Virus genome (UHGV): UHGV-0358463
Direction: 5' to 3' (one strand)
Length of the DNA stretch: 35,359 nucleotides
DNA from: a virus
The notes beneath the pieces were generated by a model. That model ran no database searches and was not told where the DNA came from. It worked only from the letters and a program-made list of their open reading frames with translations. Of this stretch, positions 3,807 to 12,502 are shown in pieces (within the stretch, counting starts at the first letter, position 1; each line of letters opens with the position of its first letter). A program made the position numbers and the translations under genes.

Positions 3807-4169
3807 TTAACGACCTGCTGCGCGGAGTTTTCCGTCAGGTTCACCGGCAAGAGTCAGTAACTGTCCCTGGTCTTCCTGCAGAATAGTCAGGCGACCACCG
3901 CGATTGACATACATCGGCGTTTCGGTGGTGTCTTCTTCGGAAATTTTCCCGCGGTTAGTCGGGCGAACATATGAGAGTTTGTGTTTGATTTTCACACGGT
4001 TCTCATCAAATGGTTCGATTTCCAGGTTGAGTGAGACCTTACCTTTGGTTTTCGTGTTCATCACACCGGAAGCGACTTCACTGAGAACTGCGCCGATTTT
4101 GGTTTCAAATACGCCGCCGTCCAGCTCCCCGATAAATGCCTGCACATCAGTACTGCGTTCGCTAGCCAT
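3807..4169 (-). CDS. hypothetical prophage protein, 120 aa (YfdP-like)
   Basis: Start placed at the ATG at 4169 (MASERSTDVQ...), 7 nt after GAGGAG. The 226-aa extension to 4487 is Arg/Cys/Trp-rich and looks like translated non-coding sequence. Confidence 0.6.
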   Translation of the reverse strand: MASERSTDVQAFIGELDGGVFETKIGAVLSEVASGVMNTKTKGKVSLNLEIEPFDENRVKIKHKLSYVRPTNRGKISEEDTTETPMYVNRGGRLTILQEDQGQLLTLAGEPDGKLRAAGR

Positions 4170-4570
4170 TTTGCTGCTCCTCATCATATCGACCCTGCAA
4201 GGCCGATTAGTTTCTCCACAAAACAGAGAAGAACACCTGCGGTGGCAGCCGCCCGGATGGATTGGGTTATGAGCCCGTCGTCCGGTGATGCTCTTCTCTG
4301 TTTTGTAAAAAGGACGGTACCAGCCGGAAGCAAGGGTACAAACTGGTACCTCCAGGACTACACACAGCATAAAGTTGTGGTGCCGGGTGCCTCCCGGTGC
4401 CTGGCGAAGGTTGCACACCAGACGGGTGGGTATCCACAGAAGGTCGACTGTCAGCCTCAACCTTAACCCGCGTGCGCTGAGCCGCATTCACCACAACGCT
4501 AAGGATTCTCTCTGGTTAAAAATACTTAGCTGTTATGTGCCTGCTTTTAGCCACATCAGGCGAGGTGGAC

Positions 4571-4623
4571 CTGGTTATTCCCCAACAACAAGGATTCGGT
4601 TAATCTGGTTATCCCCAACAACG
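4571..4623 (+). repeat. two near-identical ~19-bp direct repeats (CTGGTTATTCCCCAACAACA / CTGGTTATCCCCAACAACG) just upstream of the RBS of the 4638 gene
   Basis: Read directly: copies at 4571-4590 and 4605-4623. Confidence 0.6.
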
Positions 4624-4637
4624 CAAAAGGAAAAGAA

Positions 4638-5072
4638 ATGTCCGGTAATATCTATACGCTGTACAAATCCCACTGTGAAAATGTTGGAAAGTATCGGGGC
4701 ATTGAAATCAGTGGGGTAGTGTCATCAGTCGAAATAAGCAAAGTTGAATCAAGGGCAACATTACTTACTCTTTTGGACCTTGTCTTACATGAGCACCGGA
4801 AGAAATTCGGCACTCCCTATAATCAGTTGAATGGGAAAAAGGCTCTGGTTCACCTTATTCTGATGAAGCATCACTGGATGCCAAAACAGATTAATGAGAT
4901 GAAATTTGATGAACTTCTTCTTTCAATTCAGGATGAACTCACACTTGATAAAATAAGCGTAACCGCCCAGAAATTTTTAGATTATCGAGACTGGAGATCA
5001 CAAATTCATCACTTTGATGATTTTGACGAAAATGAATGGGATCCTAATTTGTCTGCACAATATCTAAAGTAA
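4638..5072 (+). CDS. hypothetical protein, 144 aa
   Basis: ORF with AAGGA Shine-Dalgarno; transcribed against the surrounding leftward early genes; no family recognised. Confidence 0.55.
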   Translation: MSGNIYTLYKSHCENVGKYRGIEISGVVSSVEISKVESRATLLTLLDLVLHEHRKKFGTPYNQLNGKKALVHLILMKHHWMPKQINEMKFDELLLSIQDELTLDKISVTAQKFLDYRDWRSQIHHFDDFDENEWDPNLSAQYLK

Positions 5073-5250
5073 CATCCTGTGATAAAACCGTGATTTCCTG
5101 ATCCAGTTTTTTTAAGGAGTCTATTGTTTCCTGTCGATAAGACAGCACTTCACGAAGCTGGTTTATAGCTGCCAGCTTCTTTGTCATCCACTCATAAATT
5201 TCCTCATCTGTGTAGCCAGGCGCGACGATTTTGGGTTCTGTTTTGTGCAT
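5044..5250 (-). CDS. hypothetical small protein, 68 aa
   Basis: ATG at 5250 preceded by GAGGAG (7-nt spacing); 3' end overlaps the 4638-5072 gene by 29 nt on the opposite strand. Confidence 0.5.
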   Translation of the reverse strand: MHKTEPKIVAPGYTDEEIYEWMTKKLAAINQLREVLSYRQETIDSLKKLDQEITVLSQDVTLDIVQTN

Positions 5251-5309
5251 TTCACATCTCCTCAAGTTATCAGTTACTTGTTGATGGGGACCAGATTGTT
5301 AAAGAGCTA

Positions 5310-5332
5310 AGCGTCCTGTAGGGCGCTTTTTT
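5310..5332 (+). terminator. candidate intrinsic terminator (7-bp stem with one G-U pair, then TTTTTTGTT)
   Basis: AGCGTCC-tgta-GGGCGCT followed by a T-run. Confidence 0.4.
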
Positions 5333-5498
5333 GTTGCTAACGAATCATCCTGGACTTCATATGCCCCAGGCGGCTACTTCGTGGGCGTCCTGCCTGTTCG
5401 TTTTTGACATTTACTGACTGCTTACGACACATGCACCGTGTTGCAACCAGATTTTGTTGTAATCCTGTAGTTGGTCTGGAACAAAAGATAAAATTAAA

Positions 5499-5535
5499 TT
5501 GCGAGATATGCAAGTGATGTTTGCGAAATATGCAA
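5499..5535. promoter_or_regulatory. left operator/promoter region: two 15-bp sites TTGCGAGATATGCAA (5499-5513) and TTGCGAAATATGCAA (5521-5535); candidate leftward -35 TTGCAT (5507-5512) and -10 TATCTT (5485-5490)
   Basis: Same TTGCG-N6-GCAA motif as right of the repressor gene; the -35 hexamer lies inside a site. Confidence 0.45.
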
Positions 5536-5544
5536 ATTTATAGG

Positions 5545-5569
5545 TAATAAAAAGCCACCTTTCGGTGGC
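5545..5569 (-). terminator. intrinsic terminator downstream of the repressor gene
   Basis: On the minus strand GCCACC-GAAA-GGTGGC followed by TTTTTATT. Confidence 0.55.
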
Positions 5570-5589
5570 CGATGGATGGGATATTGAGG

Positions 5590-6282
5590 TTAATTATGTC
5601 TCTTAAGGGTTTGCGACTGACTGATTAAGACCTTTCCAAAGACCATGAATCGGTGTTCGTTTTCGCTAGTAATTCCCCATTCACGGTAAATCTGGTTATC
5701 AGAAATCACCAGCAGTTTGTCAGGAATCATTTGAAGTCTTTTAACGTATATTTTGTCATCAAAACCAAAGACATATATACCATCACCATCAAACTGATTG
5801 ATGCTGACATCAACGAAGATGAGATCTCCTGGCTCAATGGTTGGACACATACTGTCCCCACGAACGTTGATAACTTTGATGTGATTGGCTGGTCGTCCGC
5901 CGAACATTGATACAGCATTATCAGTTCTGTATTCGATGGCATGAATCACATCAATGACATCACCGCCCTGGATAAGGCCATTTCCCGCACTGGCACTGAT
6001 ATCCAGCATTTCAATACGGAACACATCCTTCACCTGCGCAACATCCTCATTATTACTGTTTTTATATACAGTATTACTTTTGTGGGCAGAGGTAAAGAGA
6101 TCAGCAATATCAACACCTAAGCTCTTGGCAATATTACTCAGTGTTTGTTCGGTAAATTGTTTTTGCTTACCCGTTTCTAAGCGCGAGATGTTCGCCGCAT
6201 CTACTCCTATTGCTTCAGCGAGATCGGCGATTTTCATGTTCTTCGCTTGGCGAAGTTGTCTGACTCGGTTTCCTATGTTCAT
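5590..6282 (-). CDS. cI-type prophage repressor (N-terminal XRE HTH, C-terminal S24 LexA-like peptidase)
   Basis: 230 aa; HTH region IADLAEAIGVDAANISRLETGK; S24 signature ...VRGDSMCPTIEPGDLIFVD...YVKRL... . Confidence 0.9.
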   Translation of the reverse strand: MNIGNRVRQLRQAKNMKIADLAEAIGVDAANISRLETGKQKQFTEQTLSNIAKSLGVDIADLFTSAHKSNTVYKNSNNEDVAQVKDVFRIEMLDISASAGNGLIQGGDVIDVIHAIEYRTDNAVSMFGGRPANHIKVINVRGDSMCPTIEPGDLIFVDVSINQFDGDGIYVFGFDDKIYVKRLQMIPDKLLVISDNQIYREWGITSENEHRFMVFGKVLISQSQTLKRHN

Positions 6283-6302
6283 GCGTTTATTACATTTCTT
6301 TA

Positions 6303-6365
6303 TTGCGTGATAAGCAAATCAACTTGCGCAAAATAATTGCGTGAAATAACATGCATAACGCGCAA
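6303..6365. promoter_or_regulatory. right operator/divergent promoter region between repressor and cro-like genes: TTGCGTGATAAGCAA (6303-6317), palindrome TTGCGCAA (6324-6331), ATGCATAACGCGCAA (6351-6365)
   Basis: Repeated TTGCG/CGCAA half-sites in the 97-bp intergenic region. Confidence 0.5.
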
Positions 6366-6379
6366 TATTTGGAGGGCAT

Positions 6380-6640
6380 ATGCAATCACCATTACGAAAT
6401 GTGCGTAAGGCGCATGGTTTCACTTTGCAGCATGTTGCTGCGGGTGTTCAAGTCAATCCAGCGACGTTGAGTCGTATTGAGAGGCTGGAGCAGATTCCAT
6501 CTATCGAGCTTGCAGAACGTTTAGCCAATTTTTTTAAGGGTGAAGTCAGCGAAATGCAGATTCTTTATCCGGCACGTTTTCAATCTAGCCAAAACCAGAA
6601 TGGGTTTAAACCACAGGAACAGGAGGTGAACCGTGGGTAA
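6380..6640 (+). CDS. Cro-like HTH regulator (XRE family)
   Basis: 86 aa; HTH GFTLQHVAAGVQVNPATLSRIERLEQIPSIELAERLANFF; divergent from the repressor; GGAGGG Shine-Dalgarno. Confidence 0.8.
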   Translation: MQSPLRNVRKAHGFTLQHVAAGVQVNPATLSRIERLEQIPSIELAERLANFFKGEVSEMQILYPARFQSSQNQNGFKPQEQEVNRG

Positions 6641-7184
6641 GCATCACTGGAAAGTAGAAAAACAGCCTGAGTGGTACGTGAAAGCTGTCAGAAAAACTAT
6701 CGCAGCGTTGCCGGGGGGGTACGCTGAAGCTGCTGACTGGCTGGATGTAACAGAGAACGCATTATTTAACCGCCTTCGTGCCGATGGCGATCAGATTTTC
6801 CCGCTGGGATGGGCAATGATTTTGCAACGTGCTGGTGGAACTCACTTCATTGCTGACGCTGTGGCGCAGTCTGCAAATGGCGTCTTTGTGTCTCTTCCTG
6901 ACGTCGAGGATGTGGACAACGCCGATATTAACCAGCGCCTGCTGGAAGTCATTGAACAGATCGGCAGTTATTCAAAACAGATTCGTTCAGCAATTGAAGA
7001 CGGTGTAGTGGAACCGCATGAGAAGACAGCAATTAACGACGAGCTGTACCTCTCAATTTCGAAGCTGCAGGAGCATGCAGCACTGGTCTACAAAATTTTT
7101 TGCATTTCAGAAAGTAATGACGCCCGCGAGTGTGCAGCTCCGGGCGCCGTGGCGTGTCGTGACTGTGGAGAAACTAACGCATGA
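6633..7184 (+). CDS. CII/YdaT-like regulatory protein
   Basis: 183 aa; GTG start 6 nt after AGGAGG, overlapping the cro-like stop; third gene of an immunity module; C-terminal CxxC. Family is a tentative assignment from memory. Confidence 0.55.
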
Positions 7185-7519
7185 ACAGTTTAACAACACA
7201 CTACCGTCGCTCGCAACTGATTGCGCTTCCTGTACCGGGTGGAAAAGCGAAGGTGGAGTATTGCTATGCAGTAAATGTACCAGGTGACAGGGAAATTGTA
7301 ACCCACAGCTTTGCAGAGTGGGCTGTGGGTGATTTCAACCGGCAGAAGGAGACAGTCCTTTGCGACAAGTTAACCGCTGGTTCAAAGATCACTACGGAGT
7401 GCCCGTCAGAGTCATTCGTTGGGAGCCGGAAACACAACGGGTTATCTACCTCCGCGAAGGCTATGAGCATGAGTGCTTCAGCCCGCTCGAACAGTTTCGT
7501 CGTAAATTCAGGGAAATAG
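7181..7519 (+). CDS. hypothetical protein, 112 aa
   Basis: ATGA start/stop overlap with the preceding gene; composition only partly protein-like. Confidence 0.35.
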
Positions 7520-12154: not shown

Positions 12155-12502
12155 ATGCGTGATATGTATGAAGTATTGGACCGCTGGGGAGCATGGGCTG
12201 CAGCAGAAAATAGTGGTGTGGACTGGCAGCCGATAGCGGCTGGTTTCAAGGGACTTTTACCACACGGTAAAAAGTCACGTCTCCAGTGTGATGATGATGA
12301 AGGCATCATGATAGATAGTTGTGTGGCTAGGTTGCGTAAATATAAGCCGGAAGAGTATGAGCTGATAATTGCTCACTTTGTTATCGGTATCTCATTACGC
12401 ACTATTGCGAAGAAGAGAAAATGCTCTGATGGGACTATAAGAAAAAAGTTGCAAGCTGCATTGGGATTTATTGATGCAGTTATATATATAATACATGGGT
12501 AA
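12155..12502 (+). CDS. late-gene antiterminator Q (phage-82 Q family)
   Basis: 115 aa from the ATG at 12155 (GGAG Shine-Dalgarno); MRDMYEVLDRWGAWAA...DGTIRKKLQAALGFIDAV resembles phage-82-type Q proteins. Confidence 0.75.
   Translation: MRDMYEVLDRWGAWAAAENSGVDWQPIAAGFKGLLPHGKKSRLQCDDDEGIMIDSCVARLRKYKPEEYELIIAHFVIGISLRTIAKKRKCSDGTIRKKLQAALGFIDAVIYIIHG

Follow-up and report, generated by a model that had tools for sequence, protein, structure and literature searches.

Do the short repeats on either side of this prophage's repressor gene act as operators for the prophage's own repressor and Cro? We examined them in a 35,359-bp stretch of viral DNA, analyzed over its whole length and referred to below as the window. 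A first-pass annotation had proposed such operators, and footprints in relatives, overlap with predicted promoters, a cassette swap, and a reverse scan all support the proposal. The sites very probably serve as operators in the immunity switch of an SfII-type lambdoid prophage. The computation does not separate cI binding from Cro binding, and we assign the sites to the pair jointly. The earlier account was incomplete, not wrong: it overlooked an OR2-like half-site and a copy of the motif within cro, and it did not recognize that the motif is a palindrome. Descriptions of these operators, or binding or transcription work on this or related cassettes, were not found in the literature searched, which covered SfII (with its genome note), mEp460, ST64B, and TTGCG operators.

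The repressor gene and its surroundings

Sequence comparison identifies this part of the window as the immunity locus of a lambdoid prophage of the SfII type. Positions 5339 to 6700 of the window share 99.6% DNA identity with Shigella phage SfII, whose annotation here comprises cI, cro, and cII as well as a putative rho-independent terminator 3′ of cI. From position 5430 on, the window is ∼90% identical to coliphage mEp460 and to the Stx2a-converting phages of O157:H7. The cI-like gene (5590 to 6282, minus strand; 99.6% DNA identity with the SfII cI region) is predicted to encode a repressor of 230 amino acids, with an N-terminal helix-turn-helix region (Pfam HTH_3, HTH_26, and HTH_31 at residues 3 to 64) and a C-terminal Peptidase_S24 domain (Pfam; E = 6e-19). 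It is followed by an intrinsic terminator (5553 to 5570, minus strand), found by the terminator scan and present in the SfII annotation. The cro-like gene (6380 to 6640, plus strand; 86 amino acids, Pfam HTH_3), called cro in SfII, is preceded by the Shine-Dalgarno sequence GGAGG at 6371 to 6375, and a CII-like gene of the Phage_CP76 family occupies 6633 to 7184.

Among 80 non-identical relatives of cI, we found no variation at Ala99-Gly100, Ser144 (in GDSM), or Lys181 (in VKRL), or in the recognition-helix region. The invariance of this region and of the cleavage and catalytic residues marks cI as a probable self-cleaving repressor of the SOS-inducible type. A PDB sequence search returned weak matches only (ClgR, UmuD′, and a designed 434 domain), and the sole related one was a weak match of the helix-turn-helix alone to the designed 434-like domain (E = 4e-4), so DNA recognition was considered without a structural template. 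BLASTP of cI against Cro gave no significant similarity; by eye only, the predicted recognition helices of the two proteins have S-R-(L/I)-E in common. In the public records of mEp460 (L002, 2166 to 2813) and Stx2a_1447 (L352, 1364 to 2011), cI is a 215-amino-acid protein that starts at an internal Met. We favor the 230-amino-acid form because its first 15 residues are conserved and a conserved −10 hexamer lies 6 nt before the earlier ATG.

Several features to the left of the immunity region were also recorded. A tRNA-Thr gene (anticodon CGT; 115 to 190), which was the only match in an Rfam search, adjoins the integrase gene (205 to 1368), and this is probably the attachment end of the prophage at a tRNA gene. 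An open reading frame of 226 amino acids on the minus strand (3807 to 4487) looks over-extended: only its last 121 amino acids (3807 to 4172) match a phage protein family (phrog_204), mEp460 annotates 120 amino acids, and its 300-bp upstream part (∼4173 to 4487) had no match in Rfam. A gene for 144 amino acids (4638 to 5072, plus strand; phrog_5286) lies on the opposite strand within the leftward early region, where it converges on and overlaps a 68-amino-acid minus-strand gene (5044 to 5250; phrog_1744). It is followed by strong plus-strand terminators at 5154 to 5179 and 5309 to 5328, and the layout of the gene and its two terminators resembles that of an inserted moron.

A repeated palindrome at fixed positions

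Searching the window for the exact motif TTGCG-N6-GCAA, a check proposed by the first-pass annotation, returned three matches (starting at 5499, 5521, and 6303), all of them beside the repressor gene and within 819 bp around cI; shuffled sequences gave 0.68 expected matches for the whole window. The background rate, measured in related phage DNA (0.70 Mb, immunity regions excluded), was 1.0 per 100 kb, and a Poisson estimate from this rate puts the expectation for the 819 bp at ∼0.008. Single copies of the motif are not unique on the scale of a genome, with about 1 per 100 kb expected by chance, or roughly 40 in a host chromosome of 4.6 Mb. Four sites had been said to share the motif. This holds exactly for 5499 to 5513, 5521 to 5535, and 6303 to 6317, whereas the site at 6351 to 6365, which reads TTGCGCGTTATGCAT on the reverse strand, ends in GCAT instead of GCAA and so has one mismatch. 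Over the whole window, the one-mismatch class was not enriched (11 found versus 14.6 expected), and the pattern alone is therefore insufficient to establish this fourth site.

An independent repeat finder, run with no prior pattern, recovered the same three copies as one family (D1) and an inverted pair (I2; 5498 to 5518 versus 6346 to 6366). The family consensus is a 15-bp palindrome, TTGCG-N5-CGCAA, and individual sites accordingly have no meaningful orientation. The N6-GCAA form was the one noticed earlier because, in the window's lineage, one half mostly has T or A as its inner base.

We used cI and two diverged relatives as queries against genomes and viral contigs. The search yielded ∼230 loci, 196 of them non-identical, with cI 66 to 100% identical, from Shigella, Citrobacter, Klebsiella, Trabulsiella, Buttiauxella, and Pseudescherichia (at least six genera) and from many uncultured viral contigs. 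Operator-like sites recur at fixed offsets from the cI ATG: +21 in 193 of the 196 loci, +69 in 192, and +119 in 187. Two further sites lie ∼55 to 60 and 77 to 85 bp past the cI stop codon, and no other conserved site position was found within ∼1.2 kb across the 196 loci. Sites at the same offsets were seen in the Citrobacter, Klebsiella, Trabulsiella, Buttiauxella, and Pseudescherichia relatives; the same five sites occur in each of SfII, mEp460, and the Stx2a phages. Aligning 110 unique OR and 155 unique OL sequences showed essentially invariant TTGC(G) and (C)GCAA blocks separated by bases that drift. Indels across 6280 to 6415 occur in only 7 of the 110 OR sequences, which indicates that the geometry is constrained.

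A symmetrized weight matrix, trained only on sites of relatives whose cI is <95% identical, ranked the same four positions first to fourth in the window: 5521 (20.7 bits), 5499 (18.7 bits), 6351 (17.7 bits), and 6303 (16.2 bits). The next match reached 10.3 bits, and the best scores of shuffled windows averaged 12.1 bits; matches at 12155 to 12169 and 5243 to 5257 were set aside on account of their chance-level scores. We accepted the fourth site on the basis of its 17.7 bits and of the same-offset site in 192 of the 196 loci. The notion that the clustering is a chance similarity in AT-rich intergenic DNA draws on the fact that the motif fixes only 9 bases, on isolated copies occurring about once per 100 kb, and on the unenriched one-mismatch copies. 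Against it stand the three exact copies in 819 bp where ∼0.008 are expected, the positions conserved across 196 loci, and the agreeing linkage to the cassette described below; its probability is negligible, and the comparative data already refute it.

Probable operators, predicted promoters, and the exchangeable cassette

Left of cI, two predicted operators match the motif exactly: OL1 (TTGCGAGATATGCAA; 5499 to 5513) and OL2 (TTGCGAAATATGCAA; 5521 to 5535), the latter being the best match in the window. Their start-to-start spacing is 22 to 23 bp in 135 of 155 relatives. The TTGC and GCAA of OL1 are conserved at 97 to 99% in 154 unique OL sequences, with a varying spacer, and the half-sites of OL2 are conserved as well. 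The predicted −35 element of the leftward promoter PL, TTGCAT (5508 to 5513, minus strand), lies within OL1 and was assigned by reading of the sequence together with conservation. In the predicted −10 element, TATCTT (5485 to 5490, minus strand), T1, A2, and T6 are conserved in the 155 unique OL sequences.

Right of cI, the OR3-like predicted operator (TTGCGTGATAAGCAA; 6303 to 6317), the site at offset +21, is also an exact match; its position 11 is C in none of the 110 unique OR sequences aligned. Its right half coincides with the predicted −35 element of PRM, TTGCTT (6312 to 6317, minus strand). The six bases of the predicted PRM −10 element, TGTAAT (6289 to 6294, minus strand), are essentially invariant in the 110 unique OR sequences. 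This −10 element lies 6 nt before the cI ATG, upstream of which we found no Shine-Dalgarno sequence, a combination that suggests a leaderless cI mRNA.

The OR2-like site (TTGCGCAAAATAATT; 6324 to 6338) has a perfect left half and, in the window's lineage, a degenerate right half that ends in TAATT; the right half approaches CGCAA, as CGTAA or CGTAT, in some lineages only. In the window it is a half-site and presumably dependent on a neighboring dimer, and its status as a full dimer site is uncertain. The sequence ACTTGCGCAA (6321 to 6331) is invariant in all 110 unique OR sequences, a level of conservation above that of any single operator, and it probably doubles as the −35 element of PR (TTGCGC, predicted at 6324 to 6329, plus strand, within OR2 and invariant) and the left half of OR2. 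Within 6321 to 6331, TTGCGCAA forms an 8-bp palindrome.

The OR1-like predicted operator (ATGCATAACGCGCAA; 6351 to 6365), at offset +69, is overlapped at its first two bases by the predicted PR −10 element, TAACAT (6347 to 6352, plus strand), which is conserved as T-A-A-n-A-T. Position 1 of OR1 is A without exception, which its second role as a base of this −10 element explains; dual use likewise accounts for the rule at position 11 of OR3. Centre to centre, OR2 lies 21 bp from OR3 and 27 bp from OR1. The latter distance is a non-integral number of helical turns and places the two sites off-phase, so lambda-style cooperativity between OR1 and OR2 is not to be assumed. A candidate site at 6337 to 6351 (TTGCGTGAAATAACA), which has AATTGCGnGAnAT in common with OL1 (repeat family D14), was not counted as a family-wide operator because it is not conserved in relatives and abuts OR1. 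At 6335 to 6347, AATTGCGTGAAAT repeats the left part of OL1 (AATTGCGAGATAT); this repeat is specific to the window's lineage, with no conservation in relatives, and could provide that lineage with a further half-site between OR2 and OR1.

PL, PR, and PRM each have a 17-bp spacer, and each takes its −35 element (TTGCnn) from the outer half of an operator. Transcription is predicted to start at ∼5478 (minus strand) from PL, ∼6359 (plus strand) from PR, and 6282 (minus strand) from PRM. A strict sigma-70 consensus scan of 5000 to 6700 found no promoters, and a lenient scan found candidates with 7 to 9 of 12 consensus matches, the three assigned promoters having ∼7 of 12 (PRM counted by hand); given the negative consensus scan, the promoters were assigned from conservation. 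The first-pass statements that the left sites overlap a plausible leftward promoter and that the right sites lie in the divergent repressor/cro promoter region are consistent with the conserved −35/−10 pair that overlaps OL1 and with the overlap of the right sites with conserved elements of the predicted PR and PRM. The centre of OR2 is ∼49 bp from the predicted PRM start. In lambda, OR2 is centred ∼42 bp from the PRM start, and from this difference positive autoregulation is not inferable here. This distance and the off-phase OR2-OR1 spacing are both reasons for care in carrying over the logic of lambda.

The promoter assignments bear on another explanation, in which the repeats are just similar −35 regions (TTGCnn), kept in three phage promoters for the sake of RNA polymerase and not of a repressor. 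Each predicted −35 element does coincide with an operator half, and TTGC fits the first three bases of TTGACA, but the half that is not part of a −35 element is conserved equally well. Moreover, both halves are present in OL2 and OR1, neither of which supplies a −35 element, and no −10 element accompanies the copy in cro. The element as a whole is strictly palindromic over its 15 bp, and its spacer is free to vary. We consider this explanation extremely improbable.

Comparison with the heteroimmune phage SfIV delimits an immunity cassette (OL, cI, OR, and most of cro) at 5406 to 6604. SfIV is 98% identical to the window at 4500 to 5405 and again at 6605 to 7400, with unrelated cI and cro genes in between, and the exchanged segment encloses all of the sites described here. 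The OL and OR of SfIV have their own palindrome, TGTAC-N7-GTACA, and the TTGCG sites are absent. In the SfIV/SfV cassette (L231, 1703 to 1739 and 2478 to 2544), we noted two perfect copies of TGTAC-N7-GTACA at OR and two imperfect ones at OL. As judged from these alignments, the motif moves together with the immunity cassette, and the predicted operator specificity changes with the repressor. In a reverse scan, 120 stretches of viral contigs were chosen only for having two exact motifs 5 to 10 bp apart; a homologue of cI lay within 300 bp in 92 of them, and the remaining 28 are within the order expected by chance for the size of the collection.

Both results weigh on the idea that the CII-like protein (6633 to 7184) or a host regulator binds the sites instead of cI and Cro. 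The CII-like gene adjoins the cassette, and lambda CII recognizes TTGC repeats. However, the gene lies in a segment that is 98% identical in SfIV, whose cassette does not have these sites; its position outside the exchanged cassette argues against the CII-like protein as the binder. The sites are also inverted, not direct, repeats, and the reverse scan found them in company with this family of cI genes; a host-factor site would not swap along with the cassette. Binding by either protein is thus very unlikely.

Under the preferred reading, that the sites are operators for cI and Cro, the switch can be outlined on the lambda, 434, and HK022 paradigm, from which we take binding, occupancy order, cooperativity, looping, start sites, and cleavage; the sequences themselves show the presence, conservation, geometry, and cassette linkage of the sites, and the conserved hexamers. 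Dimers of cI and Cro would bind the 15-bp palindromes TTGCG-N5-CGCAA: OL1 and OL2 left of cI; OR3, a weak OR2, and OR1 between cI and cro; and one in cro. A dimer at OL1 would cover the −35 element and spacer of PL, one at OR2 the −35 element of PR, one at OR1 the PR −10 element and start site, and one at OR3 the −35 element of PRM. In a lysogenic cell, PL and PR would be kept off by repressor bound at OL1/OL2 and OR1/OR2, and cI synthesis would be held down when OR3 is occupied. After DNA damage, self-cleavage of the repressor at Ala99-Gly100, stimulated by RecA, would end repression, and Cro would then turn PRM off through the same sites.

The palindrome within cro and comparison with known switches

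A further operator-like palindrome (GTGCGTAAGGCGCAT; 6401 to 6415) falls within cro codons 8 to 12, ∼50 bp past OR1, and is the site at offset +119. With only 9.9 bits in the window, it would not stand out alone. All 66 unique cro 5′ ends have G as the third base of codon 8 (6403) and of codon 11 (6412), even as the residues themselves vary (L, V, or M at codon 8; S, A, T, or L at codon 11). The third bases of the invariant cro residues R9, T15, L16, V19, A20, and R32 are near random. Third bases that stay fixed despite residue change point to selection on the nucleotides, at exactly the operator half-sites, and many relatives have a perfect TTGCG-N5-CGCAA at this position. No −10 element at the right distance from the palindrome was found in either direction.

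There is about an even chance, judging from these patterns, that the palindrome is a real sixth operator, held at the DNA level against coding drift, that serves as a roadblock or as the anchor of an OL-OR-cro complex. Repressor or Cro bound there, ∼48 bp downstream of the PR start, would form the roadblock. Alternatively, the site would anchor a higher-order OL-OR-cro repressor complex, with tighter immunity and fewer virulent mutants as the outcome. It is also possible, although we think it rather unlikely, that the palindrome is not an operator but a side effect of coding constraint or an element that folds into a hairpin in the mRNA. Shuffled sequence attains scores as high as that of the palindrome in the window, the RNA could fold into a 5-bp stem, which the terminator scan flags as a hairpin, and the residues encoded there (L/V-R-K-S/A-H) are fairly conserved. 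Neither origin sits easily with a third-codon G kept at both half-site positions in every unique sequence while residues change and nearby third bases are randomized, or with conserved bases that match the operator half-sites exactly and form a perfect palindrome in many relatives. The outer positions likewise do not show the co-variation of an RNA pair.

With the lambda OL/OR-cI-Cro system, the region has in common divergent cI and cro genes, a helix-turn-helix repressor with an S24 self-cleaving C-terminal domain (predicted here), several palindromic operators on either side of cI overlapping PL, PR, and PRM (operators and promoters predicted here), a leaderless cI mRNA (probable here), and a unit exchangeable as an immunity cassette. 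It differs in several respects: the operator is a 15-bp TTGCG-N5-CGCAA element and not a 17-bp site, OL has two sites where lambda has three, and OL and OR are ∼0.8 kb apart with neither the N gene nor the rex genes between them. Unlike lambda, it also has an extra site inside cro, and OR2 is 7 bp further from PRM. The PDB search, at E ≤ 1e-3, did not bring up lambda cI as a relative by sequence. Operators of the 434 and P22 type have conserved outer 4 to 5 bp, contacted by the recognition helix, and a variable central spacer; the sites described here are alike in their conserved outer base pairs and variable spacer but differ in half-site sequence.

In phage HK022, a further CI operator lies ∼300 bp downstream of OR and contributes to immunity, and looping between OL and OR by its CI has been demonstrated (PMC8053113). 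The short distance between OL and OR is also a feature of HK022 (∼700 bp), but the extra operator is ∼300 bp from OR there versus 50 bp from OR1, in cro codons 8 to 12, here, and the HK022 operator sequences and repressors are unrelated to those described here. By analogy, the HK022 distal operator is the closest precedent that we found for the site inside cro. The SfV/SfIV cassette shares the phage backbone, flanking genes that are 98% identical, the layout, and two OL and two OR palindromes, and it differs in its unrelated cI and cro, its TGTAC-N7-GTACA operator, and a cro with no internal copy; we looked for a copy of SfIV's own operator within the SfIV cro and found none. The immunity region is best read as an ordinary lambdoid switch in which the conserved copy embedded in cro is the one unusual feature. 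The kind of switch is thoroughly known, and this cassette is a further example of it, not a new system.

We detected the immunity cassette in 1,041 of 5,426 complete E. coli genomes (19%), in up to three copies per genome, and co-resident prophages that carry it are predicted to share immunity. Likewise, SfII, mEp460, and Stx2a_1447-type phages are predicted to be homoimmune with one another and heteroimmune to SfIV and SfV. Its carriers include Shigella flexneri phage SfII, coliphage mEp460, and the Stx2a-converting phages of E. coli O157:H7, and few prophage immunity types were as common as this one in the enteric bacteria sampled. The operator consensus and promoter layout would allow homoimmune prophages to be predicted and reporters, as well as induction-defective or virulent mutants, to be designed. 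The operator within cro, if true, would be a small variation on the classic switch, comparable to the HK022 distal operator but placed in the coding sequence of the antagonist. The operator layout also opens the question of how Shiga-toxin phages that use this switch are induced.
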